A DNA stretch of 64,000 bases from a phage, in NCBI GenBank assembly GCA_026683435.1, contig GCA_026683435.1_4866.1. The stretch is one strand, 5' to 3'. Of the stretch, positions 4,301-43,831 are shown in pieces (position 1 is the first letter of the stretch; each line of letters begins with the position of its first letter). Position numbers and translations under genes: made by a program. The notes under the pieces are model-generated. The model worked only from the letters and a program-made list of their open reading frames with translations, searched no databases and had not been told where the DNA came from.

Positions 4301-7300
4301 GGTCTGGCCAGTAAGATTGGCTTAGGCTTTAATAAGGTGGCTAAGCTACCGAAACGGTTCCTGGATTTCCTGTCACCGAAAGCAGGCAGCATCGTTGGTA
4401 AGATTAAGGACTGGCTGAACGAGATTCCGGAGGGTGAAGAAAAGACACGTCTCCAGAAAGCGTTCAACCGCGTAACGAGCTTACCGGGTAAAGTGCTCGG
4501 TTTTGCGAAACGTGGTGTCGACCGTCTGAAAGACATGATTACCGACAACCCACTGACGCGTTGGTGGAAAGGCCGTAAAGATGGTGGGGGTGGTGGTTTC
4601 AGTATCTTCTCATCAACCGGAAAGAAAACCAACCACATTCTTATCCGTATCTACAAACTGTTGAACCAACGTTTACCGGGTGATCCGGAAGACGAAAGTT
4701 GGACAGAAGAAATGGAGAAGGGTGTCGGTGGCGGTGGTAGTACGATCGGCCGTGCAGTTCGCGGGGCGTATAATCGTGCGAAATCGTCGTTGTCTGAACG
4801 TTTTGGTGGACGTTGGTCAAGAACAAAAGCGTTCTTTGGTCGTGGACGTGACCGCCTGCGTGGTTGGTTCAGTGGTTTCCGAGGCCGGGCTGGGGATATG
4901 CTCGATGGGTATCGTGGAGCACGACACGACATTGCTACACGTTACGAAGTTGAACGTCGGTTGGCTGGACGTGATGACGACGTTGCTGAGTTTTATCGCA
5001 GTCATTTGAACGCGAAAGGTGGCCTTTCTGGCCGTAAAGTCTACGGTGACGCGAAGGACGACCTTGAGACCGCGCGCGATGCAGCAGGTCGGGTTATCAA
5101 CAAAGGGAAGAACGCTGCCAAATCTGCAGGTGCAAGGTTATTCGAACGCTTGGACCGAATGATTGGCTTGCAAGAGATGTCATGGTTTAACACCATGCGC
5201 GAATCAGTATCCCGTGCAGGTGGTGACGATGGCATTATTCGTACCATGTTTGCGAAGTTCGGTAAACGTAACAAGCCACCTGAAAGTGATGAAAAACGCG
5301 ACTACCTTAACTTCTTCAAACGTTGGCGTGAGAAACGTAAGGAGAAGAAAGAGAAAGCGCAGGGCTCCAAAGGGAAATCTGGCGGTCTGTGGGATATGGT
5401 GAAAGGCTTACCTATCATCGGTCCCATCGTCAGTATCTTGGGAACTGTGGGTAATATACTCGGTTCTATCACGAAATGGGGTGTGTTAAAACCAGTAGGT
5501 CTTTTAGGTAAGGCTGCGTGGAATGTCGGTAAGTTCGCAGTAACCCGTTTGGCGGCACCCGCGGTGTCCGCTGTGGCAACTGCGGCATCTGCCGTCGTGA
5601 CAGCAGTGGGCTGGCCGGCAATTCTTATCGGTGGTGCGATCGCTGCGGCTGGTTACGCCGCGTACAGGATTGCAACGACTACCTATACCCAGTACCTGGA
5701 TAAGATGCGTTTAGCTCAGTACGGTTTCCGTGATTACGATAAGTGGTCGTCGGACGACGGGGCGAAAGCGCGTTACTTAGAAGACGCATTGCGTGAGTAT
5801 GTGTCTTACGCGGAAGATGGCCAAGCCAGTCTCCGCGGGCTAAGTGGAAAAGACGTTCAGAAGTTAGCTGAAGGGTTCGGTATTAACGTCGAGGAAAAAG
5901 GCGAGATGTTGGCCTTCCAAGCGTTTATGCTTCAGCGCTTTATTCCGATTTATCTCCGCTGGATTACGGCACTGAAGTCAATGCCGAACAGTATCCAGTT
6001 GGCTGACGTCGGCGATGCGAAGAAAGTATCGAAAGAGGACATGCTGACTCTCTTCAACAAAATGAAGATGACTAAGGATGCAAAAGCGTTCTCTTCGTTA
6101 ACTGACCCACGCAAAGTCAACCAAGGTTTCTTCTCGAAGGCTTGGGACGTCGTAACCTTTACACCGAAGGAGTTTTTGAGCGGTGAAGAGGTTATGGAAG
6201 TGCAGAATGAAGTCGAGCGTGCAATCAAGTCCAGAATGGACGATAAGAAAGCACGTAAGTACGGAATGGCACCGGCCGTGGAGGGGATTAAATCCGCTGG
6301 CGTTGATGAAGCTATCAACAAACTAGGACAGCTGGATAACGAACGTAACAAAAATCTGGCGAAGGTAGAAGGTTGGGAAGACGGAACAGAGCAGGTTCAG
6401 ATTCAGGTAGACTGGAATGCGGTGCTCGACCAGAAAGACATGAATGCGATGGAATCGGTGCGTTGGAAGACTTACGGCTTTACCACCATCGATAACGCCA
6501 CCCGCACTTTGATCACGGTATTCGAGAAGAACGTCATCAAAGACATTGACGTGAAAACCGCAAGCTACAAAGGAGATTGGAAGAAAGCAATCGCCTCGAT
6601 GGTTCCAGACGCTATCGGCACACCGAAAGAAGATCGTTTGAAACGGTGGTTCTTTGACCGTTTCTTACCGGTATTCATGACGTATTTGGTTGGGGTGAAG
6701 CGTTACCTGCCAACAGCCGATCCGCTGAACTTGAAACTGACCGGCGGCTACCTGTACGAAATCAGTCTGATGATGTCAACTGCCTACAGCTTGAAAGGTG
6801 GTATAAGACAGTCGGTGTGGGAAGTGAATATCAACCCATTAGGGGGTGAGGCTAACACGAACCCATCGTCTATCAAAGCCGAGCTGGAAACGCTGAAGCT
6901 GTTGTCAAAAGAAGCTGACCTTGCCGTGCGTAACATGATTAAAGCCATTAAAAATAATGGCAAGCGTGCACGCTGGAAGGATCGTAACAAGAACCGCAGT
7001 TCTCTGGAAGTTACCGATGAAGATGAAGAAGACTCGAACATCAGTTCGGGAGATTCTTTGTCATCTGACGGTGCTCGCGCCTCAGGCTACATTCCATCGG
7101 GTACGAGTGGTGGTGTGCCGGGTAACTTGGGTCAAGTCGTCGATGCGGTTGGTGGTGTGCGGAACTACGCTGCAATGACCACTGGTTCGTCTTCGATTAA
7201 CCTGAGTGATGTGAAAGACGGTGATTATAAGTCACTGGCTGAAAAATACCCGATAGAAATGTTGGGTAGAAAGGGTGCGTTGAACGTTCCGAATATCAAA

Positions 7301-8476
7301 GCATTGATTACCGATGCGGCGAACATGATGGGCGTGCCACCTGCAGTAGCGTTAGCAATGGCTAAAGCGGAATCCGGTTTTAACTACACCGCTAAAAACC
7401 CGTATGCTTCGGCGTCTGGGCTGTTCCAGTTCATTGACGGCACGTGGAACGGGATGATGAAGGGGTATTCGCGGAAGTTCGGTATTCCGCGTGTTAACCA
7501 AATGGACCCGTGGGCGAATGCTATATTGGGTGTACAGTTCATTCGTGACAACATCCAACAAGCACAGCGTGACCTGGGTGGTAAAGCACCACCTCCAGCC
7601 GTGGCTTATCTGTACCACTTCTTGGGTGCAGGCGGCGGTAAGAAGTTCTTGGAAGCATGGAAGCGTAATCCGAATATGGCGGCATCAAGTGCTCCTGGGA
7701 TTACATCTGCAATACTGAGAGGGAATGCCAACGTCTTCTACAGCAACGGTCGTATACGTAGCGTAGACGGGGTTATTCAGGAACTGAACCGCCGCATGGG
7801 CGCAATTTCCGCCAACGAAGTCGCTGCCGATCCGAGTAAGACGAAGGATATGGTTGCAGGCTTGTCGCCTAATTCACCAACCAACCCGGCAGCAGCAATG
7901 GGTGCACCGGCCGCTAATGATCCGAGTCTGTCGCCAGCAGATAACCTGCCGGCAGATAATGCTAATCGTCGTGATGACGCATTGACGCAGAAAGGGGCCA
8001 TGGCGGCACAAGATGCAATGGCTACCGCCGCAGGTAATGTAGGACCAGCAGCACCTACACCAACCACAGGCGGTACCGGAACATCCGATGCCTCAACAAC
8101 GGCCGAAACCGTAGCGTCGCAAGCTGCAGCAGAAGGATTGTCTGCGACGGATGTTGCTAAAGTGAAAGCAGGCGCGGAAGCGCAGGTTAACGCAGCAGCT
8201 CGTCCAGTTGCCGCTCCAACTTCTGATGCTACAGCATCGACGCCAACGCTGAATGGTGACCCGATAGATGTTCAGCAGCTCAAGGTACTGATTCAGTCTC
8301 GCGATTACTTGAAAGAGATTCGTGATATTTTGAAATCAAATCCAAGAGCGGCAAACGACACACGGGGTGGTAGTATCCAGCAAGCGGCAAATGTGGCTCC
8401 TCCGGGCTCAGCTGCACGTAGGCAGGAAATAACCCAACCGACACCGTCGTTAAACGTAAGTCGGAAAGCAAGCTAA
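1355..8476 (+). CDS. giant tape-measure-like tail/ejection protein with C-terminal lytic transglycosylase (SLT) motif
   Basis: 2373-aa ORF; Gly-rich repeats; long hydrophobic segment (GLPIIGPIVSILG…AAGYAAYRI); SLT family-1 motif AESGFNYTAKNPYASASGLFQFIDGTW at nt ~7361-7447. Confidence 0.85.
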   Translation: MAKRGKDGFDDIDLDRLDDWDDFGEPPRPKDEKKRSPILSTLNVARKSALSTIWPEGKRDQVILKGMPKPAADAYEGYQSAAAAAKDIYAHTKGELEKTERTLKMQARQLGPTMKKYLPDAVTKRIDKWSKSDQLDYQNYDPNQALMDRELGDVFSGVPKDADEQRQLQDRMVEDKLRDSIKEMRADAMHQTMIGMAKDINLLTGLSRGVFLNIERKKLELQYRTLFAIQDIVKMKQSEFDRNTPALEAIVKNTALPDYAKEDFSEVRWANVKRQAAEWMNPLRYADGFMDMIRENTKKKISGIFGEGRGLLESVLGMGVEDDFGMSDSSSLTAERRKTNARDKATAWGSGFLAKKLLGPQIEKLQKWTREEMEKNPEVMKRLQKGAFTFGNLSSISNSAIAGETQGPLADLFRVLNELGIVQPLNREKAFLDERNGETLSRSAKFDRKAYLSLVEVIPAWLAEINKSVRRGYGEHADLEYDITSRGFVDRKVVGNRVRKAVANDEQRLRLQNSINSTVDFVDRGKTLSQKDRQHLADYIESRASQGRAFDVEAILKDPMHLHRYMPGNAAERIKEALQGHSDSLVGGSNELSNELARKISTVQSSITQRQAIIDEAVNIYGERALRDAGIFNYDAKSDTFGVDKDLSDPYTLFNDLAMGKTRSGRALTRDQEIQRKLQNGSALGDYLRRMNQGASGGADDTSLPPALRGGGKGRGMSPRQLAAVLYGETSTNFVELLSQRNRGEEAPRNNFDGIIEAIRGNNNSDTLQKILEHVRSMDEEGVLLASLAGGAGSGDEEMGPPRPGGGSGGGKRRRIIIGEDGLIRRWGGVLFDTAAGIGGFAKRGVKGAWNKLNQFGGWARGKIAGMGGGEGPGFLTRMRGLISGSVRGGFEAVSSFGKGLLGIRDVYDDHGNVVLQGARLEAGEYYQVIDGKMVQLKTLDDIKLGSDIVDSAGNLVLAAADLAAAGKLRYYKGGKIQALTQGLASKIGLGFNKVAKLPKRFLDFLSPKAGSIVGKIKDWLNEIPEGEEKTRLQKAFNRVTSLPGKVLGFAKRGVDRLKDMITDNPLTRWWKGRKDGGGGGFSIFSSTGKKTNHILIRIYKLLNQRLPGDPEDESWTEEMEKGVGGGGSTIGRAVRGAYNRAKSSLSERFGGRWSRTKAFFGRGRDRLRGWFSGFRGRAGDMLDGYRGARHDIATRYEVERRLAGRDDDVAEFYRSHLNAKGGLSGRKVYGDAKDDLETARDAAGRVINKGKNAAKSAGARLFERLDRMIGLQEMSWFNTMRESVSRAGGDDGIIRTMFAKFGKRNKPPESDEKRDYLNFFKRWREKRKEKKEKAQGSKGKSGGLWDMVKGLPIIGPIVSILGTVGNILGSITKWGVLKPVGLLGKAAWNVGKFAVTRLAAPAVSAVATAASAVVTAVGWPAILIGGAIAAAGYAAYRIATTTYTQYLDKMRLAQYGFRDYDKWSSDDGAKARYLEDALREYVSYAEDGQASLRGLSGKDVQKLAEGFGINVEEKGEMLAFQAFMLQRFIPIYLRWITALKSMPNSIQLADVGDAKKVSKEDMLTLFNKMKMTKDAKAFSSLTDPRKVNQGFFSKAWDVVTFTPKEFLSGEEVMEVQNEVERAIKSRMDDKKARKYGMAPAVEGIKSAGVDEAINKLGQLDNERNKNLAKVEGWEDGTEQVQIQVDWNAVLDQKDMNAMESVRWKTYGFTTIDNATRTLITVFEKNVIKDIDVKTASYKGDWKKAIASMVPDAIGTPKEDRLKRWFFDRFLPVFMTYLVGVKRYLPTADPLNLKLTGGYLYEISLMMSTAYSLKGGIRQSVWEVNINPLGGEANTNPSSIKAELETLKLLSKEADLAVRNMIKAIKNNGKRARWKDRNKNRSSLEVTDEDEEDSNISSGDSLSSDGARASGYIPSGTSGGVPGNLGQVVDAVGGVRNYAAMTTGSSSINLSDVKDGDYKSLAEKYPIEMLGRKGALNVPNIKALITDAANMMGVPPAVALAMAKAESGFNYTAKNPYASASGLFQFIDGTWNGMMKGYSRKFGIPRVNQMDPWANAILGVQFIRDNIQQAQRDLGGKAPPPAVAYLYHFLGAGGGKKFLEAWKRNPNMAASSAPGITSAILRGNANVFYSNGRIRSVDGVIQELNRRMGAISANEVAADPSKTKDMVAGLSPNSPTNPAAAMGAPAANDPSLSPADNLPADNANRRDDALTQKGAMAAQDAMATAAGNVGPAAPTPTTGGTGTSDASTTAETVASQAAAEGLSATDVAKVKAGAEAQVNAAARPVAAPTSDATASTPTLNGDPIDVQQLKVLIQSRDYLKEIRDILKSNPRAANDTRGGSIQQAANVAPPGSAARRQEITQPTPSLNVSRKAS

Positions 8477-17389: not shown

Positions 17390-17752
17390 TTATCGAAGAA
17401 TAAGAATTTGGCTACTGTCGTGCACATTGTACGTATTCATCCTGGGCTTGCTAGGCGGGTTGAATCCCATCAATAATTCGCACAATACACGACCAGGCTG
17501 CCCACTGAAGATAACCAGGTGTGTGGTGTCTTCGCCGTCTCCAAGTCGGGAGAAAGCAACGCGTGGTGATGCAGCTTGCGTGTAGAGTTGCAATAGTTGA
17601 AACTTACCTTCTGCGAAGGGAGCAAGTTTCTCTTTCCACTCGACCATAGATGTTTCGTCGAGTTCTAACGTGCGTACACGTCTCCCGTCACTATCCGGAA
17701 CACCACAAACAAACACGATTCCGTGACGATTAAAGAAGAAGCCGATTTGCAT
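17390..17752 (-). CDS. hypothetical protein
   Basis: 120-aa ORF, RBS aaggagt. Confidence 0.6.
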   Translation of the reverse strand: MQIGFFFNRHGIVFVCGVPDSDGRRVRTLELDETSMVEWKEKLAPFAEGKFQLLQLYTQAASPRVAFSRLGDGEDTTHLVIFSGQPGRVLCELLMGFNPPSKPRMNTYNVHDSSQILILR

Positions 17753-17782
17753 TTACATACTCCTTAAGATAAAAAATAAAGA

Positions 17783-17806
17783 TACCCTCTCCCGAAGGAG
17801 AGGGTA
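17783..17806 (-). terminator. intrinsic terminator (minus strand)
   Basis: hairpin taccctctc-ccgaag-gagagggta, T-run on minus strand. Confidence 0.65.
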
Positions 17807-17810
17807 CGAC

Positions 17811-18473
17811 TTAGATGCGGGTTTCATTATCCCAGTAGTTCCGAATGACTTCCTGGGCTTCAGCATCAGACGGGTTGCCTGGAATAGCGTCTTCTACTGC
17901 AAACGGCAATACGTCCTTGATAGACGTCAGCTCAAATCGCTCAACTTCCAGTTCGACTTTTACCCATTCACCGAATGTCGTGGAGTCACGCAGTTCGTTG
18001 ACAAGGTCTTCGAAACCTGCCTGCGATTCGATAACTGGGTGACCTGCCAGTTTAAAGAACAGATCAATATCCCAATGCTTCGCACCTTGCTCTGCCAGTT
18101 CACCTGGTTCGAGTTTGATACGACGCACGAGATGTGCAAGATTGCCATCTTCGTAGAAGGTCAGACCCGAAGCAAACCCGATATCCGAGTTCTCTTCGAT
18201 ACGTCCGTCAGATGCTTGTCGTTTTAACGTTAAGACTGCGGTTTTATCGGTGGACAACCGCACACGACGTTTGCCGTTAACGACCGGCATGATGACATCC
18301 AGGAACGTTTCACCTGTCTGACCAAACAGCCATTGCCAACCTTCTTCAGTGGGTTTAACCCACATGCAATACTCACGTTCCTTCTCCGTAGAGATGGACT
18401 CACGCGCAACAGTAATGACTTCTTTTTCCTGCTGCTCGTCTAAGTTTTTGAGAATATCAAATAGTCCCATCAT
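17811..18473 (-). CDS. hypothetical protein
   Basis: 220-aa ORF. Confidence 0.7.
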   Translation of the reverse strand: MMGLFDILKNLDEQQEKEVITVARESISTEKEREYCMWVKPTEEGWQWLFGQTGETFLDVIMPVVNGKRRVRLSTDKTAVLTLKRQASDGRIEENSDIGFASGLTFYEDGNLAHLVRRIKLEPGELAEQGAKHWDIDLFFKLAGHPVIESQAGFEDLVNELRDSTTFGEWVKVELEVERFELTSIKDVLPFAVEDAIPGNPSDAEAQEVIRNYWDNETRI

Positions 18474-19308
18474 CGATTCCTAGTTTCTTCAAAAGTTCGG
18501 TTCGATCAAACGTACTGTCCTCAGGATCGATATGTTCAGCTATCATCTCAATCAGATTTGGTAGCCAGTCCCAGTGTGCTGGGAATATCTTACGCCCTTG
18601 CATCATGTAATAATGCTTAAGCGGGATACGTGCTCGCAGAATCTCTGCAAATACATTACCTAACGATGTCCCGTCGACCGACAGTATAAAGAGTTTATTT
18701 ACCAGCGCATGGATAAAACGGCTTTCTGTAACCGGGGTAAATGAACCGGGCTTATAGCTGGTTCCTCCGTAGATTTCCGCTTTCAGATTACGACCTAACC
18801 GGATACAGTCGGTGCCATCCAGTGCACGCAACTTCTCAATATCAGGCCAGGTGTTCACTGCCTGTCGCATGATATCAAATTCCATCACCAAAGTGCGGTT
18901 ATCAATTTCACGCATTAAGTAATCCAGAATACGCAGGTAATGATAATAACCTTCGAGCGTCCGGAAAGGTCCGTGGGGGGTAACAAAATACTCACCAGGG
19001 CGAGCATAGAAGTTACTCGCCATCCGACCTATCTCAGTTCGCCCCTGCGAATAGATGTTGAAGTGATTCAGACCGTCTGTAGACGGCGTGATGTCCACCA
19101 AGGTACTCTGGTAACCCATACGCAGTAAATAGCGTACAAAGGCTTCCTTTTCTTCTGGTGGGAGGATGGGACGTAAAACAGGATATGTGGCTTCTACCGA
19201 GGCGGGCAACGTAAACCCAAAAGCAGCTGCCAAAGCATCCACCGATGCACCATCGACACGTAGACGTTCCAACGCACTACGCAAAAACTTACCTTCATCT
19301 TTCGACAT
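18457..19308 (-). CDS. hypothetical protein
   Basis: 283-aa ORF. Confidence 0.7.
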   Translation of the reverse strand: MSKDEGKFLRSALERLRVDGASVDALAAAFGFTLPASVEATYPVLRPILPPEEKEAFVRYLLRMGYQSTLVDITPSTDGLNHFNIYSQGRTEIGRMASNFYARPGEYFVTPHGPFRTLEGYYHYLRILDYLMREIDNRTLVMEFDIMRQAVNTWPDIEKLRALDGTDCIRLGRNLKAEIYGGTSYKPGSFTPVTESRFIHALVNKLFILSVDGTSLGNVFAEILRARIPLKHYYMMQGRKIFPAHWDWLPNLIEMIAEHIDPEDSTFDRTELLKKLGIDDGTI

Positions 19309-22046: not shown

Positions 22047-22081
22047 GATAGATAATATCTGTCTGAGTTCTTTTTGAGATG
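22047..22081. promoter_or_regulatory. conserved intergenic element, copy A
   Basis: GATAGATAATATCTGTCTGAGTTCTTTTTGAGATG; aligns with copies at 31167, 40259, 49531. Confidence 0.5.
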
Positions 22082-28479: not shown

Positions 28480-29049
28480 CTATAGTTGAAAACTGAAACG
28501 CAAATGGATTTCCCTTACCGTATCTACCACTTTCCGATAAACGTCTCCCATCACATCCCTCAAATCACGCTCAAGCAGATACACGATTTTCTCACACAGC
28601 TCGCTGCTAAAAGGATAACGTGTCACTGTATAACTGCCCGGATGTTTTTCGGCATGTTCGATGATTGCTTTATCACTAACGGCATACGCGGCAACACGCT
28701 TGCCGTCGTCACGATAGACTACATAAGCGATGTTGTCGAAAGACTCGACGTGGCGTCGAAAATTCGCTACCAAATCCGAAACATCATCGCGTTCAGTCAG
28801 CGAAGTTATTCTGCCAGCATAAACCCCATCGACCAGATCGGCATCAGTAATCTCAACCTGTAAAACGCGCTCCGTTAACGCAATCAAATCTTTCAAAAAG
28901 GGATTGAGCAGCAGCAACATGATGTGCTTTCGATGTTCTTCAGGCATGATACTCTCAAGCATGGCGTCGTAATCTCTGTTGAGAGTTTCGATGAGGCCTT
29001 TCCACATTTCCTCATGCCCAGGCGTGGTCAGATCAAGGTAGATTTTCAT
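28480..29049 (-). CDS. hypothetical protein, tandem paralog family member 2
   Basis: 189-aa ORF; N-terminus MKIYLDLT. Confidence 0.7.
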   Translation of the reverse strand: MKIYLDLTTPGHEEMWKGLIETLNRDYDAMLESIMPEEHRKHIMLLLLNPFLKDLIALTERVLQVEITDADLVDGVYAGRITSLTERDDVSDLVANFRRHVESFDNIAYVVYRDDGKRVAAYAVSDKAIIEHAEKHPGSYTVTRYPFSSELCEKIVYLLERDLRDVMGDVYRKVVDTVREIHLRFSFQL

Positions 29050-29585
29050 TCAATAACCTCCCCATATTTCTCGCCGAGGTACAACAGCTCACGGCGACAG
29101 ATAGCCAGCACTTTCATTTCCGCTTCACGATACAACTTGGTGATTTTGTCAATGATTGGCTGGTCAACGATATCAGACCATGTTACCGTGTCCGTAACGT
29201 TTGACGATTGTCCGTTAATGACCACAGCAACGTACGTCTCGCCGAGGTTCTCTTGATGTAACCCCGCCAGAGATTCACCGACCTTATCAAAGGCTTCACT
29301 CAACAAGTCGGTGATTTGGTCCGTCCCTTCTACCAGTTCAAAACGATGGGGATAGTTCAGAATGTTACGCAGCCGCGTGAACATACGTTCAATAAGCTGA
29401 TTTACCATATCCCCAGTGTCACAGATAGTCACATCTACACCCGAACCTATTTCGTCAGACAAACGATTTTCGTGGACGGCCAACGCATCGTGAAGTTCAA
29501 ATTCCACGTCACGTTTTAATCCTAACAGAATTTCATCTAGCTGACGTCTCGACTCCGACAGAGCGAAGTCAATTACGATTTGCAT
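29046..29585 (-). CDS. hypothetical protein, tandem paralog family member 3
   Basis: 179-aa ORF; N-terminus MQIVIDFA. Confidence 0.7.
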   Translation of the reverse strand: MQIVIDFALSESRRQLDEILLGLKRDVEFELHDALAVHENRLSDEIGSGVDVTICDTGDMVNQLIERMFTRLRNILNYPHRFELVEGTDQITDLLSEAFDKVGESLAGLHQENLGETYVAVVINGQSSNVTDTVTWSDIVDQPIIDKITKLYREAEMKVLAICRRELLYLGEKYGEVIE

Positions 29586-29595
29586 CTAATGCTCC

Positions 29596-30003
29596 TTAAA
29601 AGTTACTTAACTCGGGCTGCGTATACCAGTATCTGCACGCTACGAGATCCACAACGTTATATTTCAGTTGTCCACCGTGCTGTGACGTGTCTGCCAATTC
29701 ACGCGCAAGCTTGAACGCCAAGTCTCCACGGTTGTCGAGGATAAGCAACACAACACGTTGCACCTCATTAAAGATATCCAGTTCACGTAAACAACTGTAG
29801 CGGTCGCTAAGATGCTTAATAACGCCTTTATAAACATCTCCTGGTACAGCAGTGCCATTTTCTGCCGCGTGGAATGAAACAAGCACGATTTTAATTAAAA
29901 TCTCGACAACCATGGAGTATATCATTCCACGGTTGCCGTTAATTTCCACATGCTTTAGATACTCTTGCAAGTCCATCAATGACTCGCTATACACCTTTAA
30001 CAT
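29596..30003 (-). CDS. hypothetical protein
   Basis: ORF track 29596..30084; start moved to ATG 30003 (MLKVYSESL) to avoid 71-nt overlap. Confidence 0.5.
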   Translation of the reverse strand: MLKVYSESLMDLQEYLKHVEINGNRGMIYSMVVEILIKIVLVSFHAAENGTAVPGDVYKGVIKHLSDRYSCLRELDIFNEVQRVVLLILDNRGDLAFKLARELADTSQHGGQLKYNVVDLVACRYWYTQPELSNF

Positions 30004-30013
30004 ACCGCCCCCA

Positions 30014-30385
30014 TTAGCTGGTAGCTGGCCAAACCCCCGGCGATGGAATCGCATCGTATCCACGCCATTTCTTAATGGCAACAAGGCTAGTGCCTGGGGA
30101 GCCGTCTAAATCGAAACCGACGGTTGCAACCACATCAACTTCGGTTTCTAAGTTAGAGTGGCCGATCGGAGAGAGGTGGGAGAAGCTGACGACTTTACCG
30201 CCCTGGATGGCGGTATCTCGAACTATACGAGCCATCTGTCTTATTTCTTGAGAAACTGGGCCGCGTAGGGTGGTTACCCGCGACGATAACGTCAACCAGT
30301 TTTCGCTCTCGGGTGCGACTATGTACAGAATAGTCCCTTCTTTAAAGTATTGTTTAACCAGTGTTTCAAATTCGTCTTGCGTCAT
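30014..30385 (-). CDS. hypothetical protein
   Basis: 123-aa ORF. Confidence 0.5.
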   Translation of the reverse strand: MTQDEFETLVKQYFKEGTILYIVAPESENWLTLSSRVTTLRGPVSQEIRQMARIVRDTAIQGGKVVSFSHLSPIGHSNLETEVDVVATVGFDLDGSPGTSLVAIKKWRGYDAIPSPGVWPATS

Positions 30386-30398
30386 GTTAAATACTCCT

Positions 30399-31133
30399 TC
30401 AGTAGTTTAGTTTCTCAGAGACTTCTTTACGGATGCGACACATCACCACCATCGCACCATTCGGAATTTGGCTCACGCAGTTATCCGTGTAAAACTTACC
30501 TTCACAGAGATAAAAGTCCAGACACATGGCATCGGTCAGTTCGTGCCACAGTGTGCCGAAACCGTACTGCCAAGGGCCAGAATGAACGACATCGTAATCG
30601 CCTTCAGTTATGCCAAAAGCGGCAGTAGCGGAAGACCACAGTGTTGAGGAGGTGGTATAAGTGTCATACCAGTAACCGAGCAGACGATGGTTACGACGTA
30701 TCTCAGCTAACCGCTCGTACATTGGGATGAATACATCTTCCACCTGCGTGACAAAATCAGCCAGCATCAACTTTTCCGTGAACCACTCGATCCACGCAAA
30801 GATTTGTTCTTCAACGTCTTGTTGACTTAACCCCGTGGAAGTGATACCTTCTTCGTAGCTGTAACCTTCGTAGACGTCAACAACATTAATCTCTACATGT
30901 TCTAGCGTGAACAACCGTTCGGTGTTGATGCAGTCGTACATCTCTTGTAACCACGCAGTGAAGACTTCTATACAGACGTTGATGGCTGTATACTTGAACT
31001 CGTCACGCAGAGGATACCACTGTGGGTTATCCTTTAGTTCGTTCTTCGCGAACGCGGGCCAATGCTTTTCGAACAACGCTTCAAAGAACTGGGGCGTGAG
31101 GTTTAAAAGCACTGGCACTTCGACTTTAAGCAT
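30399..31133 (-). CDS. hypothetical protein
   Basis: 244-aa ORF, RBS aaggag. Confidence 0.7.
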   Translation of the reverse strand: MLKVEVPVLLNLTPQFFEALFEKHWPAFAKNELKDNPQWYPLRDEFKYTAINVCIEVFTAWLQEMYDCINTERLFTLEHVEINVVDVYEGYSYEEGITSTGLSQQDVEEQIFAWIEWFTEKLMLADFVTQVEDVFIPMYERLAEIRRNHRLLGYWYDTYTTSSTLWSSATAAFGITEGDYDVVHSGPWQYGFGTLWHELTDAMCLDFYLCEGKFYTDNCVSQIPNGAMVVMCRIRKEVSEKLNY

Positions 31134-31166
31134 CGTGAATAAATTCTCCTTAAGGTTACGTCCCTG

Positions 31167-31201
31167 TAGATAATATCTATCTCAGATTACTTTAAGAGAT
31201 G
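31167..31201. promoter_or_regulatory. conserved intergenic element, copy B
   Basis: TAGATAATATCTATCTCAGATTACTTTAAGAGATG; overlaps stop codon of upstream minus gene. Confidence 0.5.
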
Positions 31202-31927
31202 CAAGAAGCGTGCTGCCTGTTCTGTAAAGTGAAAATACTCGATGGTATCAGGTTCGTCCGAGTGAATGTCATCCGGGTCCAGCAGGTAGCCCGAGATATC
31301 ATCCGTTAAAACCCAAGCGTCTCCCTGCAGGAAAATACCCATCGGTTTTTCTACCACGGACATCACCAAGTCGGAATAAGAGTTACCTTCTGCTACCTTT
31401 ACAATGTCTTCACACGGGTCAACAATATACAGGTTGCAGAGACTACGATCTTTAAGACTGCGATGAAACATCGCTCGATCGTACCAAATAACCTGAGAAC
31501 AATTATCTTCGTCACCCGCCACATCGACCAACTCTGTCCAGAACCGATGTAAGAACCAGTTCAACGCACCGGTTATTAGCTCGTTCGGTTTCAGCATTCT
31601 AACGTGTTCGTCGTACAACTCTTCCATTGTCCAGATTCGACAATGCTCACGATCGATTGTCGGTAGCGGAGGTATTTGCGGCGGGACTTGTTTAGGCATC
31701 GGTTCATCACATCTTGCGTTGTAACGCGCAATTGTTTCGGTAACCAGCTCTGCCACAACATCACAAGCCGCTTCAAATCCCCACTTGTACAACACGTCGT
31801 AATCTTCCATGGGCGCAGCACCAAACTCACGGTTCGTTGCCATCCACGACATCCATCCGTATTGCTCCACACAGTTAATCAGACTTTGTGTGTGGAGCGT
31901 GAGCGATTCACTCACGACTCGCAACAT
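31187..31927 (-). CDS. hypothetical protein
   Basis: ORF track 31187..31987; start moved to ATG 31927 (MLRVVSESL) with RBS gaggtg. Confidence 0.65.
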   Translation of the reverse strand: MLRVVSESLTLHTQSLINCVEQYGWMSWMATNREFGAAPMEDYDVLYKWGFEAACDVVAELVTETIARYNARCDEPMPKQVPPQIPPLPTIDREHCRIWTMEELYDEHVRMLKPNELITGALNWFLHRFWTELVDVAGDEDNCSQVIWYDRAMFHRSLKDRSLCNLYIVDPCEDIVKVAEGNSYSDLVMSVVEKPMGIFLQGDAWVLTDDISGYLLDPDDIHSDEPDTIEYFHFTEQAARFLHLLK

Positions 31928-31928
31928 G

Positions 31929-33443
31929 TTACACCTCTTCTTCTCGCAGTATGCGACGGTTTGCGTAATACGCACACCACAACCCATGATACTCTTTACC
32001 GATATAGATTAAGAAGTAACGGATGTAGTATTTTTCAGGACGACACACCGCGATGTAATAACGGCCTTCGGGTTCTTTAATACGGTTGATTTCCGTACGA
32101 GACGGAATATCAATACCACGCGTCAAAATAACCGAGACAGGTCGTTTACCCATCGGAAAGTCAATCTTTAACGTTATTGACTTATCGACGCTACGGTAGT
32201 ATTCCTTAACAGGCTTACCTTTGTCATCGAACAACAAGTCAGTAATATCATTTAAGACATAACCCTTTTCCTGATGCAGAACATCACGCAACGTTGTAGC
32301 GAGTTCGTCACGAATATCCAGCGCACGGTACGACAATAAGGGCGGGCGAAGCATTCTGGAGATGGCCAGGTCTTCAAAGAACCAGACATTGGAATCTTCT
32401 CCACTGAAATGCATCTTGTCTGCCGGTAATCCATCACCTGCCACGTCAACGAACTTCTTACGTTTAACGAACTCATTGTTAACAACACCGATTGGATCAT
32501 ACTGCCGCATCTTCGGTGTATCTTTCCATGCCAGGGCGGCGTGGTTGTTTACAATCGTGTAGATGTTATCCCACGGTTGTTTAGTGAACATTACGGAAAA
32601 GTGTGCATCAGGAATCATTTTCCCAATAAACACCAAGTCGTCCTTGTTCTTTGCATGGTTGCCACCAAACATGTAATAGAAAGTTTCATCTTTCACTTTT
32701 ACAGTAGGATGGTCCTCGTTCACCAACGGATAGCAATATTTAACCGTACAAATCGGCGGATATGCCGCAAGGTTCATCCCAGCGGCGATGGGCTCGGGTT
32801 CCGCGGATGCAGGCAACTCATCCTTCGACCAGTACGGCTGATATGGAACGCCGTCGTTGGTCGCTGTGATGGCTGAACCTTTTCTAGCCAATTCGTCCGC
32901 CCGGTCGTTACCGTAGTGGCCGGAGTGTCCTTTGATTTTGATAACCTTAACACCCCGTCCTTCTTTTTTCATCTGCTGTTTGATTTCCCAGATACGAACA
33001 ATAAGTTCTTTGTTCGCCAGCGGAGTACCGTCAGCACGAACCCAACCGCGTTTATGCCAGCCGTCTATCCACTCGTTAAAAGTGTTTACAACGTAACTGG
33101 CATCCACGTAGATGATATAGTTCTTCGCGCGGAAGGGCGCGTTCTCAAACAACGTGATGAAGGCGATTAACTCGCCCACATCTGAGTAGAACTCTTTCGG
33201 AACGGGAATAACGGCGTCGACAAATTGAACGGTGTCCGGCAACTCCGGACACTTCACATCCTGCGGCACTTTTTTGTATCCAACAGTGGTAATCCGTTCT
33301 GAAACACCCGGATGGCTATAAGCCTGACTGTCTTCCAAATCTCCGTTGTTGAATAAATAACCATGAATACCAGCCCCCGAACCTTTCGGGGACTCAGTAT
33401 GACTACCATCGGTATAAATAACCGCTACGTCGACGTCTTTCAT
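31929..33443 (-). CDS. RNase HI domain fused to C-terminal domain of unknown function
   Basis: N-terminal ~190 aa carry RNase HI motifs: TDGS, ELIAF, YVDASY, WHKRGW, KGHSGHYGNDRADELA; C-terminal ~310 aa unassigned. Confidence 0.85.
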   Translation of the reverse strand: MKDVDVAVIYTDGSHTESPKGSGAGIHGYLFNNGDLEDSQAYSHPGVSERITTVGYKKVPQDVKCPELPDTVQFVDAVIPVPKEFYSDVGELIAFITLFENAPFRAKNYIIYVDASYVVNTFNEWIDGWHKRGWVRADGTPLANKELIVRIWEIKQQMKKEGRGVKVIKIKGHSGHYGNDRADELARKGSAITATNDGVPYQPYWSKDELPASAEPEPIAAGMNLAAYPPICTVKYCYPLVNEDHPTVKVKDETFYYMFGGNHAKNKDDLVFIGKMIPDAHFSVMFTKQPWDNIYTIVNNHAALAWKDTPKMRQYDPIGVVNNEFVKRKKFVDVAGDGLPADKMHFSGEDSNVWFFEDLAISRMLRPPLLSYRALDIRDELATTLRDVLHQEKGYVLNDITDLLFDDKGKPVKEYYRSVDKSITLKIDFPMGKRPVSVILTRGIDIPSRTEINRIKEPEGRYYIAVCRPEKYYIRYFLIYIGKEYHGLWCAYYANRRILREEEV

Positions 33444-34250: not shown

Positions 34251-34730
34251 TCATTGCACAAGGCAACTACTTTTGTGCCGTTCGTAGGCACGATTAAAAG
34301 ACTCTCTGTCTTCGCGATAGCTGCGAATGAGAGACTTAATCTGTCGTGACAAATCACGACTAATGTCTTGAGGGCTACGAGAACCAGGGTCGAGATATAT
34401 CCCGGAGGGTATACCATGAAGAGTGGGGCGAATAAACTCTTCACAAAGCGGTGCGGTCATCGGGGTGTGCCACCCTTTAGCTTCTGCATAGTTGTTTACT
34501 GACTTAGCGTACAGATAAACGTAATAAGCATAAGCGTTCACATCCGCAACAAACATTTTCCCTGCCAGCTTTTTCGCCTCAGGACTGTTCCCACCGTTAT
34601 ATACTGGTGGGTGTTCTAAAGGACGAAAAGGCCAATCTCCGGTTGAGGAGTAATCTGGGTCTACGTGACGGATGACCCCAGGGCATCCTGTCAACAATAG
34701 CACCAGTATCGCCACCAAAAATAACTTCAT
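34251..34730 (-). CDS. lipoprotein (candidate outer-membrane partner of upstream gene)
   Basis: N-terminus MKLFLVAILVLLLTGC has signal peptide with lipobox LTGC; 159 aa. Confidence 0.75.
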   Translation of the reverse strand: MKLFLVAILVLLLTGCPGVIRHVDPDYSSTGDWPFRPLEHPPVYNGGNSPEAKKLAGKMFVADVNAYAYYVYLYAKSVNNYAEAKGWHTPMTAPLCEEFIRPTLHGIPSGIYLDPGSRSPQDISRDLSRQIKSLIRSYREDRESFNRAYERHKSSCLVQ

Positions 34731-34739
34731 GTATGCTCC

Positions 34740-35255
34740 TCATGGATTATTAAGCGTACTGATAATCTCCTGTCGGAAATCGTTTGCCGCCTGCGACCCC
34801 ACTGGGCGAGAAGCTGCCTGGTGTTTCTTGGCAGGCGGGCTAGACGGATTTAACGGTGCCTGTGGTGTTACCGGCTTGAGTTCTTCAGGCGGAACCGCGG
34901 CCCCAGTGCCTGTCCCTGTTGGAGATTTGGTACCATCATATGGCGATCGAGAACCCAGGCATGTGAAGAGACGATCGTACAGCTTATTGTTCTCCACTTC
35001 GCCATGATCGGACTTCTCTTTTAGCTCCTTATAGGATATCTCCAGATACTGAGTACGCGATTGGACGCTAACCAGTGTGTGGTATTGAACAATGTAGGCA
35101 TATGAGACAAATGCAGAGAACGCGATCAGTGCCACTATCACTAGTGTCACTATTTTCCCGGCTCGTGTTACTTTCTCCCCCTCGCCCGGTTTAAATGCTT
35201 CCCACAGAATCTGTAAGAATGGAAGCAGTTTGAAAACTGATGCTATCATGCTCAC
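34740..35255 (-). CDS. inner-membrane-anchored protein with short coiled-coil and Pro/Ser/Thr-rich C-terminus
   Basis: 171-aa ORF; single hydrophobic helix IVTLVIVALIAFSAFVSYAYIV near N-terminus. Confidence 0.7.
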   Translation of the reverse strand: MSMIASVFKLLPFLQILWEAFKPGEGEKVTRAGKIVTLVIVALIAFSAFVSYAYIVQYHTLVSVQSRTQYLEISYKELKEKSDHGEVENNKLYDRLFTCLGSRSPYDGTKSPTGTGTGAAVPPEELKPVTPQAPLNPSSPPAKKHQAASRPVGSQAANDFRQEIISTLNNP

Positions 35256-38539: not shown

Positions 38540-38806
38540 CTAGTTACGGTCGGAATTAAAGACGTGCCAGGTACTACGCCAGCGGAAGAATCGGGTTATG
38601 AAACCACGTATGTGGTAGCCTGAGAACAACATCCAGATCGTGAGAAAAAGCTGCGCCCATGGAGTGGTGAGTTCCATCAAATGCGCGACTATCGCACCAA
38701 CTATCAACATTACCGTGGAGAATAACAAACTATACATCATCGGAATGTTGTGGCTATAGCGTTTCTCCATCCAGTAGAGAAAATTTATTAAACGTTTCAC
38801 GAACAC
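38540..38806 (-). CDS. small membrane protein with two predicted helices (holin-like topology)
   Basis: 88-aa ORF; two hydrophobic stretches and basic C-terminus. Confidence 0.5.
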   Translation of the reverse strand: MFVKRLINFLYWMEKRYSHNIPMMYSLLFSTVMLIVGAIVAHLMELTTPWAQLFLTIWMLFSGYHIRGFITRFFRWRSTWHVFNSDRN

Positions 38807-38830
38807 ACATCCAAGAATTAAATAAAAGGT

Positions 38831-38852
38831 GGTCAGACCCGAAGGTCTGACC
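38831..38852 (-). terminator. intrinsic terminator (minus strand)
   Basis: hairpin ggtcagacc-cgaa-ggtctgacc. Confidence 0.65.
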
Positions 38853-38857
38853 GTTAA

Positions 38858-39451
38858 TTACGCATCGGCCTCAAAGAACGGCTGGTTTGGTACCACTGCG
38901 TATTCGAGCACGAACAGATGTTCTGGGGCATCTTCTGCTCGCCACAGTTTGTGGCACGTTGCCAGTTTTTCCAGGATGGTCAACCAGCTGAGCTGGCAGA
39001 AAGCACGGTCGCCGAAGAACAGTTTCTGCAGTGCAATCGACACATCCATATACGCCTGTTTGAAGTCGAGTTCTTTATCGTAACCCGCCGACTGTCGCCA
39101 CGTCAGCACGAAACCTGCTTCGGTTTCGTTAATTGCTGGACGTAAACCACAAATCCACATCAGTGCCAGATTAACGTTCCAGTCGAATTCGATACCTTCG
39201 TCTTCGTCATCACCAAACGCCGCGTTTAACGCATCGTAGAAACCGTGGTTCTCTGCGAACCATTCGCCGTACTCAACGTAGACCGGTGCTTCGACAGCTT
39301 CCCCATCGACTTCACCGATAGGACGCTCTACATAGTTCGGGTTGGTTTGAACGTGTTCCGCACCCGCGCGAATTAATTCGTAGACATCTTTGGCGGTGAT
39401 TTGTGCGGCTGTTTTAAGACCTGGATACCAGGGGCGTGTTACGAGTGTCAA
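38858..39451 (-). CDS. hypothetical protein
   Basis: 197-aa ORF, 4-nt overlap with upstream gene. Confidence 0.65.
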   Translation of the reverse strand: MTLVTRPWYPGLKTAAQITAKDVYELIRAGAEHVQTNPNYVERPIGEVDGEAVEAPVYVEYGEWFAENHGFYDALNAAFGDDEDEGIEFDWNVNLALMWICGLRPAINETEAGFVLTWRQSAGYDKELDFKQAYMDVSIALQKLFFGDRAFCQLSWLTILEKLATCHKLWRAEDAPEHLFVLEYAVVPNQPFFEADA

Positions 39452-40170
39452 AGCAATGCTCCTTTCATGATAGTGTTATTTGCCAGTAGTGTACCGGCCG
39501 CAGGTGATATTTTGGTGTACAGCGTATCCCAGATTTTCTGAAGCTCAGCGACGCGTTGGTCGCGGTCTTCCTTCGCAAAAGCAAGCTGACGTGTTTCAGC
39601 TTTCGGTGGCGTCATTTTCGCACCGTAGAATGCTGCGTCTTTTCGGTAGCTGTCCATCCAGCGTTTCCCGACCGATGATTTCTTTTTAATCATCGCAACA
39701 GCAGCGCTCTCACCGAAGCGGTAGCCTAATGCAATTTCGGCTGTGCTCGGCTTGCGTTTGAGTTGTTTTGTCAGATGATCCTCGATGTGTTTCATGTAAA
39801 CAGCAGCAAGCTGTACAGCATATTTCGGTTTATTAAGGTCTGCGTTCTTTGGGATGTTAAGTTGTTTCCCATACAGACGTATCATGGAGCGTTTAGTACC
39901 TGTCGTCATTTGGACAACACTACTAGCACTGCTCGATTTATTCTTACCCACGTTTTTATTAAAACGGGATTCGCGGTAAATGGTGGTCGCAAGCATCCCG
40001 GCATGTACACCTTGCTTTTGAGATGCAGAGACGATGAGAGGTTTAATCTCATTGAACTGGTCCTGGATAAGGACAAATTCTTTTTGATGTTTGTTACTGG
40101 TGGACTGGTAAGAAGCGTTGCTGTTGAATGTGGTCACTGCTACCAGAAGAAATAAAATGGTGCGAAACAT
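39448..40170 (-). CDS. secreted or signal-anchored lytic transglycosylase-like protein (candidate endolysin)
   Basis: N-terminal hydrophobic signal MFRTILFLLVAVTTF; motif ESRFN…SSSASSVVQMTTGT parallels the SLT motif of the giant protein. Confidence 0.65.
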   Translation of the reverse strand: MFRTILFLLVAVTTFNSNASYQSTSNKHQKEFVLIQDQFNEIKPLIVSASQKQGVHAGMLATTIYRESRFNKNVGKNKSSSASSVVQMTTGTKRSMIRLYGKQLNIPKNADLNKPKYAVQLAAVYMKHIEDHLTKQLKRKPSTAEIALGYRFGESAAVAMIKKKSSVGKRWMDSYRKDAAFYGAKMTPPKAETRQLAFAKEDRDQRVAELQKIWDTLYTKISPAAGTLLANNTIMKGALL

Positions 40171-40258
40171 GGATGTATCTCCAAACGGATTTATACTTTT
40201 CCGTTCCCAATCCGGGAAGACGGCGCGGACGGCATTGTGCTCCTTTGTAATGTGCCCT

Positions 40259-40291
40259 GATGATAATATCTATTTGAAACTTTTTGGGATG
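40259..40291. promoter_or_regulatory. conserved intergenic element, copy C
   Basis: GATGATAATATCTATTTGAAACTTTTTGGGATG; overlaps stop codon of macro-domain gene. Confidence 0.45.
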
Positions 40292-43138: not shown

Positions 43139-43246
43139 TTAAAACCAACCTTGCGTCAATGCAAGGATTGCGCCTAGGGCGTATGCGCCTGCTCCTAGTA
43201 CCAGACTACAGATGATACACCCAACCCACTTCACTAAAATAACCAT
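43139..43246 (-). CDS. small hydrophobic peptide (35 aa)
   Basis: Manual translation MVILVKWVGCIICSLVLGAGAYALGAILALTQGWF; below ORF-track cutoff; weak RBS. Confidence 0.3.
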   Translation of the reverse strand: MVILVKWVGCIICSLVLGAGAYALGAILALTQGWF

Positions 43247-43365
43247 GATGCCAGAAATGCTCCGATTGCACAGATGATAATCGTAATGCCAAGGTCTGTC
43301 CAGGTGGCACCATCATACGCACCTGTTGCAATCATCGCCGCGTTGACACTATTCACGACTGTCAT
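43234..43365 (-). CDS. small hydrophobic peptide (43 aa)
   Basis: Manual translation MTVVNSVNAAMIATGAYDGATWTDLGITIIICAIGAFLASWLF; RBS aaggga. Confidence 0.35.
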   Translation of the reverse strand: MTVVNSVNAAMIATGAYDGATWTDLGITIIICAIGAFLASWLF

Positions 43366-43552
43366 AAGCCGGGTCCCTTAAACGCGGGGGCTTGCTCCAC
43401 AGATTACCGAAGTAAACCCCTTCTAAGAACACCAAAACAACTAAGCCCCAAAAGGCAGGCGTAGCGCGAGACATGAAAATACCGAGTAGCACCACAGTGT
43501 GCATTACCACAACTGCCCAAAACTTTAAACGACCAGGTTTACGTCTTGCCAT
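43349..43552 (-). CDS. small membrane protein (67 aa)
   Basis: ORF track 43349..43597 (GTG start); trimmed to ATG 43552 (MARRKPGRLKFWAVVVMHTVVLLGIF…). Confidence 0.45.
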   Translation of the reverse strand: MARRKPGRLKFWAVVVMHTVVLLGIFMSRATPAFWGLVVLVFLEGVYFGNLWSKPPRLRDPAYDSRE

Positions 43553-43643
43553 GGAATGCCCATCCTTTCGTGCGGATAATCCAACCCCAGGCACCACGAA
43601 TCAACCACAGTGCAATACCGGTTAATACGATACCTTCAATCAT
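43539..43643 (-). CDS. small hydrophobic peptide (34 aa)
   Basis: Manual translation MIEGIVLTGIALWLIRGAWGWIIRTKGWAFHGKT; RBS ggagaa; ATGA overlap with upstream stop. Confidence 0.4.
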   Translation of the reverse strand: MIEGIVLTGIALWLIRGAWGWIIRTKGWAFHGKT

Positions 43644-43831
43644 GTCCGTTCTCCTATATCTCGCCACTCACAACGCGTGTCGAACAGACGTTCTTTAAGA
43701 GCAGCAGCTAAATAAACGACCGCAGCGATAACCACTACGGTTGCACAAAAGGAGAGGTACAGTACCATCACAACAAACTGAAGGAACTGAAAACCCCACC
43801 AAGCCCATAAGCGCCAACCGTTATGATGCAT
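43640..43831 (-). CDS. small membrane protein (63 aa)
   Basis: ORF track; hydrophobic helix FQFLQFVVMVLYLSFCATVVVIAAVVYLAAAL. Confidence 0.5.
   Translation of the reverse strand: MHHNGWRLWAWWGFQFLQFVVMVLYLSFCATVVVIAAVVYLAAALKERLFDTRCEWRDIGERT

Follow-up and report, generated by a model that had tools for sequence, protein, structure and literature searches.

The lysis cassette of phage phiKZ, defined only in 2025-26, spans gp141-gp144 and encodes an i-spanin, an o-spanin, a class III holin, a regulator and an endolysin; the endolysin, gp144, is released by the holin, gp142, for which complementation of lambda Sam and triggering by dinitrophenol (DNP) were performed (PMC12894885). phiKZ and the phage analyzed here are related nucleus-forming jumbo phages. 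The phage is represented by a stretch of 64,000 nucleotides (GenBank assembly GCA_026683435.1, contig GCA_026683435.1_4866.1), called the window at its full length. The locus in question, positions 38,540 to 40,170, holds gp198, a gene for a soluble lytic transglycosylase (SLT), followed by gp199 and by gp200, which encodes a small protein with two predicted transmembrane domains (TMDs). A first reading of the sequence (the original prediction) took gp198 and gp200 for possible dispersed lysis genes. The reading we favor, with a probability of about 0.5, is that they belong to two separate units, a secreted-SLT operon and the lineage-specific gp200.

phiKZ gp144 (3BKH/3BKV) has the same catalytic fold as gp198 and is its best match in both sequence and structure. 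gp144 carries a peptidoglycan-binding domain at its N-terminus and lacks a signal peptide, whereas gp198 has a predicted cleavable signal peptide and no binding domain. The genes around gp198 also differ from the phiKZ cassette, and no homologues of gp141-gp143 were detected next to it. Endolysins secreted through Sec, such as Lys44 of Oenococcus phage fOg44, carry a cleavable signal peptide and reach the wall without a holin-made hole; they act on Gram-positive hosts, have other catalytic domains, and their role in lysis is experimentally established. Lys44 and gp198, as predicted, are both muralytic proteins with a typical signal peptide, but the motif in front of gp198 predicts early transcription. 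P1 Lyz and R of phage 21 are signal-arrest-release (SAR) endolysins, and S21 68 is a pinholin. These systems resemble the locus in having a Sec-dependent N-terminal hydrophobic segment and a nearby small two-TMD protein, but the 12-residue core and AxA site of gp198 would leave no releasable anchor, and gp200 is not conserved together with the enzyme. The host enzymes MltE and Slt (2Y8P, 6GHY and 5OHU) are periplasmic transglycosylases of the GH23 family-1 fold that coexist with an intact wall, and they are the next-best structural matches to gp198. MltE is a lipoprotein, Slt has a large superhelical domain and both are housekeeping enzymes, whereas gp198 is small, predicted to be soluble, and ends in a disordered basic C-terminal tail. 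Many phages of Gram-negative hosts encode enzymes that combine GH108 with PG_binding_3, which are labeled endolysin in Goslar and others. The enzyme of this type in the present phage group, gp156, differs from gp198 in its fold, is cytoplasmic, and is encoded in a tail-fiber block outside the window.

Between positions 36000 and 43000 the window shares 97-99% identity with the SPN3US group of phages, that is, with Salmonella phage SPN3US and relatives, and by this similarity the source phage is a Seoulvirus (SPN3US-like), a 240-kb phiKZ-like jumbo phage. All three open reading frames (ORFs) are on the minus strand at the coordinates in Table 1. The gp198 of the window is 99% identical to SPN3US_0198, for which GenBank gives 'putative endolysin' and RefSeq 'transglycosylase'; SPN3US_0199 and SPN3US_0200 (gp199 and gp200) are annotated as hypothetical. 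Public annotation already identifies the enzyme but contains neither its signal peptide, nor the anatomy of the operon, nor the idea of a holin. The SPN3US papers searched hold no mention of gp198, gp199 or gp200. The 'putative endolysin' label has been copied across ~40 genome records without any test and carries a risk of mislabeling. Separating the exported SLT, the GH108 enzyme and the candidate membrane proteins tells experimenters which genes to target. Nothing categorically new is described here; known kinds of element are described more precisely, and the modest points of interest are a predicted early secreted SLT, a covarying leader hairpin and a variable two-TMD slot.

Fold, catalytic motif and predicted export signal of gp198

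gp198 matches the Pfam SLT family (PF01464) with 28.3 bits against a gathering cutoff of 21.3 (E = 1.4e-6) and the PHROG 'transglycosylase' at 7e-58. The closest solved sequence is phiKZ gp144 (E 5.5e-7, 31% identity over 117 aa), and the alignment places E67-S68 of gp198 on the IES (Ile-Glu-Ser) of gp144. This ES motif is kept in 11/11 homologues. VVQM and GYRFG stand at the positions of what we take to be the second and third family-1 motifs. The AlphaFold2 model has a confident helical core at residues 30-187 and low confidence at both ends, over 24 residues at the N-terminus and ~50 at the C-terminus (tail 188-240). Foldseek returned phiKZ gp144 (3BKH), Escherichia coli MltE and Pseudomonas Slt as the best matches to this model. 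The protein is basic, with an isoelectric point (pI) of 10.1. From sequence and model together, gp198 is a predicted family-1 lytic transglycosylase (GH23), which would leave 1,6-anhydro-MurNAc ends on murein, with a goose-lysozyme-like, all-helical SLT fold and an intact catalytic Glu-Ser.

The N-terminus of gp198 was assessed by rule-based features: the n-region, the h-region and the cleavage motif. It begins M-F-R, continues with an uncharged 12-residue core, TILFLLVAVTTF, and ends in N-S-N-A|S. The core is strongly hydrophobic and reads ILFLLVAVTTF and equivalents. Hydropathy of TMD grade is absent from the N-terminus, where no 19-residue window reaches 1.6 on the Kyte-Doolittle scale, and the AlphaFold2 model sets this low-confidence segment apart from the SLT domain. 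All 11 homologues, which represent the eight genera Seoulvirus, Erskinevirus, Machinavirus, Wellingtonvirus, Derbicusvirus, Risingsunvirus, Agricanvirus and Moabitevirus, share this layout: one or two basic residues, an uncharged run of 11-15, a small-x-small (AxA-type) site and a Ser/Thr-rich stretch. It is retained even though the identity of the gp198 homologues drops to 27%. These features support a cleavable Sec (type I) signal peptide, from which we infer export and cleavage. A SAR anchor is an uncleaved, weakly hydrophobic TMD of ~16-22 residues, rich in Gly, Ala and Ser and able to leave the membrane. The short 12-residue h-region and the conserved AxA-type cleavage motif rule out such an anchor for gp198, and for these reasons its signal is read as cleavable. 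The original prediction of an SLT-like enzyme with an ES motif agrees with Pfam, PHROG, the gp144 alignment and Foldseek, and its N-terminal hydrophobic signal is located at residues 4-15. Of its two proposals for that signal, 'signal-peptide or SAR-type', the 12-residue h-region and the small-x-small site in 11 homologues retain the first and dismiss the second. The joint claim that gp198 has this fold and is exported is well supported, and we hold it to be highly probable.

The favored mechanism would start with gp198 made as a pre-protein that the host Sec machinery exports and that signal peptidase I cleaves after NSNA19, so that the mature chain would begin SYQSTS. The mature protein would be a soluble periplasmic transglycosylase that reaches murein without a hole made by a holin. 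gp198 would thus pre-load the periplasm with a murein cutter and could aid wall breakdown once the membrane is de-energized at the end of infection.

The window holds a second SLT domain at ~7322-7804, inside a 2373-aa protein encoded at 1355-8476 (+) that RefSeq names 'tail fiber protein'. This domain is nearer to phiKZ gp144 (E = 5e-18) than gp198 is. The 2373-aa protein is presumably a virion-associated lysin that punctures the cell wall, distinct from gp198.

Organization of the SLT-gp199 operon

The sequence is consistent with an operon of the form P(early)-leader-SLT-gp199-terminator, in which the early promoter is predicted. Its core, AGATATTATC, lies between a macro-domain gene and the SLT gene, and three exact copies are present in the window where 0.04 are expected. 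The extended consensus of the motif is (G)AGATAGATATTATCTnnnG(G/T)GA. Of the 13 directional copies in the SPN3US genome, 10 are exact and 3 carry one mismatch, and each stands upstream of non-structural operons. The motif precedes the genes for the non-virion RNA polymerase (RNAP) at 29014-33356 and the operon that includes 17704-19299. The polymerase genes at 29014-33356 are outside the published list of virion RNAP subunits of SPN3US, which comprises gp42, gp218, gp240 and gp241 (PMC5105663). In this group of phages, the one conserved AT-rich motif detectable by bioinformatics was the early promoter used by the injected virion RNAP in every profiled case (PMC7598289). Because of this precedent and of the non-virion RNAP genes behind the motif, AGATATTATC is likely, by analogy, an early promoter read by the virion RNAP. 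Seoulvirus, Erskinevirus and Machinavirus keep the copy upstream of the SLT gene, which in Wellingtonvirus (Wellington) has become degenerate. Sigma-70 promoters were also considered and are not enriched in the window (5 found, 5.0 expected), which fits a phage that relies on RNA polymerases of its own.

The motif is 100 nt from the ATG of the SLT gene, compared with 41-57 nt for most other genes that bear it and 72 nt for one. The intervening leader of ~90 nt is conserved in an alignment of 11 phages, with the invariant boxes AGGAG, GCTGTCCGCGCCG and CGGAAAAGTATAAAT. It contains the true Shine-Dalgarno sequence of the SLT gene, GGAG, 9 nt before the ATG. A search of Rfam with the leader matched no family. 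A hairpin, CCGUCUUCCCGGAUUGGGAACGG, forms in the leader of every orthologue, flanked by these boxes and with an invariant outer stem and seven differing inner stems that are all complementary. Pairing was scored by folding each sequence; column-wise counting was dropped as gap placement displaced the inner stem between lineages. RNAalifold found four pairs with compensatory changes, and the single-sequence z-scores of the hairpin are modest (-1.2 to -4.0). An upstream ORF in the leader (Shine-Dalgarno plus ATG, 14 codons) was rejected, its frame and start being unconserved by eye in SPAsTU, pEa29 and Asesino; what is conserved in the leader is accordingly its nucleotide sequence or RNA. The hairpin looks like a regulatory RNA element, and the leader may hold back translation of an early transcript.

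A 40-aa ORF annotated as SPN3US_0197 (window 40128-40250, +) runs antisense across the SLT start and the conserved leader. It is probably not a gene, because the leader and the coding sequence of the signal peptide account for the conservation in this region.

The TTG start codon of gp199 overlaps the stop codon of the SLT gene (TTGA) and has its own Shine-Dalgarno sequence, AAGGAG, 7 nt upstream. This arrangement indicates that gp199 is translationally coupled to the SLT gene. gp199 is acidic (pI 4.4) and has no signal peptide or TMD. It is directly downstream of the SLT gene in all close genera inspected and in CR5, and the family is limited to the close SPN3US-related genera plus CR5; distant phages with an exported SLT do not have it. 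A structural search with the gp199 model (pLDDT 78) found no meaningful neighbor, and comparison with the phiKZ lysis regulator gp143 by hhalign gave a probability of 0.1%, which marks the two as unrelated. Our guess is that gp199 may be a cytoplasmic partner of the basic pre-SLT. Directly after the gp199 stop codon, an intrinsic terminator (GGTCAGACC-TTCG-GGTCTGACC plus a T-run, 38852-38831) forms a 9-bp stem with a UUCG loop, and a GC-rich hairpin with a T-run occupies the equivalent place in SPAsTU, pEa29, Asesino, ChrisDB and Huxley. A terminator after the gene at 38858-39451 had been part of the original prediction.

The position of the motif directly upstream of the SLT gene raises an alternative in which gp198 is an early secreted enzyme that remodels or locally opens murein and takes no part in terminal lysis, with gp199 as a chaperone or inhibitor of the pre-protein. 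Possible purposes would be to accommodate the swelling cell, to allow envelope-associated assembly or to hinder superinfecting phages. Export through Sec would free the enzyme from holin timing, and the eight enterobacterial phiKZ-like genera retain a signal peptide-bearing SLT irrespective of the genes that follow it. A separate endolysin-type enzyme, gp156, is present, and the coupling of a basic SLT to an acidic gp199 fits a protein and its chaperone or inhibitor. However, the literature search found no experimental precedent, and gp199 is missing from the distant phages with this SLT. Early transcription is also compatible with a late function, and a long structured leader such as this one could postpone translation. 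T4 lysozyme is a case of early transcription and late translation. We regard early remodeling as rather unlikely; if the secreted SLT is indeed made early, the phage would be putting a murein enzyme to an unusual use.

gp200 and the variable slot downstream of the terminator

gp200 starts 52 nt downstream of the SLT-gp199 operon, beyond the conserved terminator. It has a basic amphipathic N-terminus, a strongly hydrophobic segment at residues ~21-47 (TMD1), a tight Pro-containing turn, a weaker and aromatic second segment at ~49-70 (TMD2) and a basic C-terminal tail. The positive-inside rule applied to this layout predicts an inner-membrane protein with two TMDs in the N-in/C-in orientation, which is the shape of a class II holin or pinholin. 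Judging from the homologues, which begin MK(R/K)L, translation probably starts at the second GTG (38800) and yields a protein of 86 aa. A dual-start motif was considered and rejected; the two GTG codons are two codons apart, add no charge and are unconserved. The topology of the original prediction (two hydrophobic helices and a basic tail) is retained and its length of 88 aa is likely 86 aa.

The comparison of gp200 between the window phage and SPN3US gives a nonsynonymous to synonymous substitution ratio (dN/dS) of 0.12, which identifies it as a real, constrained gene. Its dS is 0.315 compared with ~0.05 in the SLT gene and gp199, a sixfold increase that points to allele exchange at the site. 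The most conserved block is the invariant cytoplasmic C-terminal motif WRSxWHVF; conservation is highest in this motif and in the N-terminal amphipathic segment and not in the TMDs. Homologues beyond the Seoulvirus relatives were found neither by tblastn against 50,697 phage records nor in a search of 5.8 billion proteins, and an exhaustive HMMER search of 1.84 billion representatives returned five proteins, all of Seoulvirus type. No holin family, nor a family of any other kind, in Pfam, PHROGs or NCBIfam matches gp200. The two-TMD domain DUF4231 scored 8e-4, below the cutoff, and was rejected as TMD composition bias; the SPAsTU and pEa29 homologues do not reproduce the match.

Five of the ten inspected relatives that keep the exported SLT, namely Asesino, CR5, Joad, Deimos-Minion and BUCT660, have no gp200; the Erskinevirus phages lack it, and three of the five are more distant relatives. 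Its complete absence from these phages argues that it is not an obligatory partner of the enzyme. By these criteria gp200 appears to lie outside the SLT operon and to be neither co-transcribed nor co-conserved with the SLT as in a lysis cassette. What lies between the gp199 terminator and gp201 varies across genera: at least four unrelated two-TMD families (gp200-like, phrog_20030, phrog_32841/22994 and the Wellington 117-aa/88-aa proteins) occupy this slot, or it is empty (Table 1). The recurrence of non-homologous two-TMD genes at this site would fit fast-evolving holins and would fit equally an accessory or arms-race locus, for instance for superinfection exclusion. The holin-like character proposed in the original prediction therefore finds nothing beyond topology to sustain it, given the lack of a family match, the intervening terminator and the phages that keep the SLT without gp200. 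Topology and position point to a holin, an assignment that we consider improbable.

In the favored reading, gp200 would be a real, selected two-TMD inner-membrane protein in a recombination-prone slot downstream of the terminator. Its candidate functions are those of a holin or pinholin, of a regulator of lysis timing and of a superinfection-exclusion protein. The small membrane protein Imm of T4 is a superinfection-exclusion or immunity factor. A more specific alternative makes gp200 an accessory membrane protein of that kind, or an antiholin-type timing regulator acting through WRSxWHVF, with no hole formation. The lineage-restricted family, the site in a variable slot after a terminator and the raised dS at low dN/dS, which suggests allele exchange under continued selection, are consistent with this alternative, as is the concentration of conservation outside the TMDs. 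A fast-evolving holin, however, fits this evidence equally well, and no sequence or structural tie connects gp200 to exclusion or antiholin families. On balance, this specific role is possible but unlikely.

Table 1. Coordinates of the features discussed. Positions refer to the window unless SPN3US (NC_027402) is named; the latter are outside the window.
Feature	Position	Strand	Description or basis
gp198 homologue, SLT gene	39448-40170	-	240 aa
Predicted signal peptide of gp198	residues 1-19, 40114-40170	-	rule-based features
SLT domain of gp198	~residues 30-187 of 39448-40170	-	Pfam, AlphaFold2, Foldseek
gp199	38858-39451	-	197 aa
gp200	38540-38806	-	88 aa (86 aa from likely start)
Predicted early (virion RNAP) promoter core AGATATTATC	40262..40271	-	motif copies and conservation
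Copies of AGATATTATC	22051-22060, 31169-31178, 40262-40271	all -	exact
Conserved 5' leader of SLT mRNA	40171..40261	-	alignment of 11 phages
Leader hairpin CCGUCUUCCCGGAUUGGGAACGG	40201..40223	-	folding of every orthologue
Intrinsic terminator of SLT-gp199 operon	38821..38852	-	hairpin and T-run
Variable slot	38807-38857 and equivalents in relatives		between gp199 terminator and gp201
Slot in Asesino			empty
Slot in CR5			no membrane protein
Slot in pEa29			gp200-like protein and unrelated 162-aa two-TMD protein
Slot in ChrisDB			194-aa two-TMD protein
Slot in Huxley			two two-TMD proteins, 162 and 187 aa
Slot in Wellington			two unrelated membrane proteins, 117 and 88 aa
Spanin-like pair (gp204/gp205), TMD protein	34740-35210	-	N-terminal TMD, short helical region, Pro-rich tail
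Spanin-like pair (gp204/gp205), lipoprotein	34251-34730	-	159 aa, lipobox LLTGC, Pro at +2
gp156, GH108+PG_binding_3	SPN3US 135425-136042		205 aa, no signal or TMD
gp86	SPN3US 84978-85550		190 aa, ~100-aa cytoplasmic N-domain, two TMDs, basic tail
gp87	SPN3US within 84978-86286		212-aa cytoplasmic protein

Other lysis-type genes and the role of gp198

The whole SPN3US genome was scanned for membrane proteins and lipoproteins, and the dispersal of lysis-type genes seen in the original prediction is supported by further such genes elsewhere in this genome. gp156 lies in a late block of tail-fiber genes and has no early motif close by. Its conservation extends over Seoulvirus, Erskinevirus, Machinavirus, Wellingtonvirus and Goslar, and in the clade that keeps the SLT its identities are higher, at 77%, 75% and 56% compared with 69%, 44% and 38% for the SLT. 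Its domains suggest the standard soluble cytoplasmic type of endolysin, and it would compete with gp198 for the endolysin role. gp158, its neighbor, belongs to phrog_894, which is 'endolysin'-like.

gp86 and gp87 come directly after the homologues of phiKZ gp139 and gp140, a site that in phiKZ is occupied by the lysis cassette (PMC12894885). Sequence similarity of gp86 and gp87 to the phiKZ holin and regulator is undetectable, and only the layout of gp86 recalls gp142. By analogy of position, gp86 and gp87 are candidates for the true holin and its regulator. Homologues of phiKZ gp141, gp141.1, gp142 and gp143, the spanins, holin and regulator, were not detected by tblastn in the window (E<=10) or in SPN3US (E<=1), with matches for gp141-gp143 at chance level only (best E 0.39).

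The genes at 34251-35210, 3.3 kb beyond gp200, encode a spanin-like pair in the 'separated' arrangement, in which a type II membrane protein is followed by a lipoprotein. They are the only adjacent i-spanin/o-spanin-like pair in that order found in the genome scan. Next to the gp157/gp203 homologue, phiKZ gp156.1 and gp156 are positional analogues of this pair. The proven phiKZ spanins are gp141 and gp141.1, not gp156.1 and gp156 (PMC12894885). Because phiKZ has these positional analogues besides its proven spanins, the spanin assignment at 34251-35210 needs care.

The spanin-like pair is one of several features that would suit a complete lysis system at the locus, in which gp198 is a Sec-exported endolysin that is inactive in the energized periplasm and gp200 is a class II holin or pinholin that depolarizes the membrane on schedule. 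A secreted endolysin held inactive in this way is the model proposed for Lys44 of fOg44. The size of gp200, its two TMDs and its basic cytoplasmic ends are holin-like and its gene is just 52 nt past the operon; unrelated two-TMD proteins fill the slot in pEa29, ChrisDB, Huxley and Wellington, a diversity that is typical of holins; and gp198 is the closest stand-alone enzyme to the proven gp144. Against this stand the exported SLT of Asesino, CR5, Joad, Deimos-Minion and BUCT660, which is kept without gp200, the conserved terminator that splits gp200 from the SLT operon, the absence of a holin family match for gp200 and the early promoter predicted before the SLT gene. Elsewhere in the genome there are also an endolysin-type enzyme, gp156, and a protein with a layout like that of the phiKZ holin, gp86. 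We judge an endolysin-holin pair of gp198 and gp200 very unlikely. As an endolysin, gp198 would be a rare example of the signal-peptide type among phages of Gram-negative bacteria, and such enzymes are of practical interest because they reach the wall without a holin.

In the two-unit reading, gp198 would not be the sole murein enzyme and probably not the holin-gated one, a role that gp156 would fit. Whether gp198 is the lysis endolysin of the phage is uncertain, and we put this at somewhat less than even, because of the early promoter motif, the holin-independent export and the competing GH108 enzyme. Several points weigh against the two-unit reading. The SLT has been annotated as an endolysin since 2011, and among the stand-alone enzymes of the genome gp198 is the nearest to the proven endolysin of phiKZ. 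An exported transglycosylase made early could harm the cell unless it is restrained. Its export is read from rule-based features of the N-terminus, and the early promoter is built on motif logic rather than on mapped transcript starts. Enzymes with a GH108 domain may also serve as virion or accessory proteins, and gp158, the neighbor of gp156, is a tail-associated virion protein (PMC5105663). The literature search, which did not cover the infection proteomics study PMC6384053, found no transcriptome, proteome or genetic data for gp198-gp200.

A broader conjecture, which we consider quite unlikely, would extend to the enterobacterial phiKZ-like phages as a group. From a conserved operon with a virion-RNAP promoter, these phages would secrete a transglycosylase through host Sec early in infection for a job other than lysis, such as murein remodeling or phage exclusion, with translation controlled by the leader hairpin and gp199 as a coupled partner in one clade. 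Lysis would proceed through gp156, gp86 and gp204/gp205, and the two-TMD slot, including gp200, would be an arms-race locus.

Another group of small membrane-protein genes is present upstream in the window. Three tiny genes of 63, 67 and 43 aa lie at ~43200-43800 (-) (SPN3US 171400-171997), directly after an SMC-like gene and upstream of the acetyltransferase-macro-SLT block, and the relatives have clusters of comparably tiny genes at the same position.

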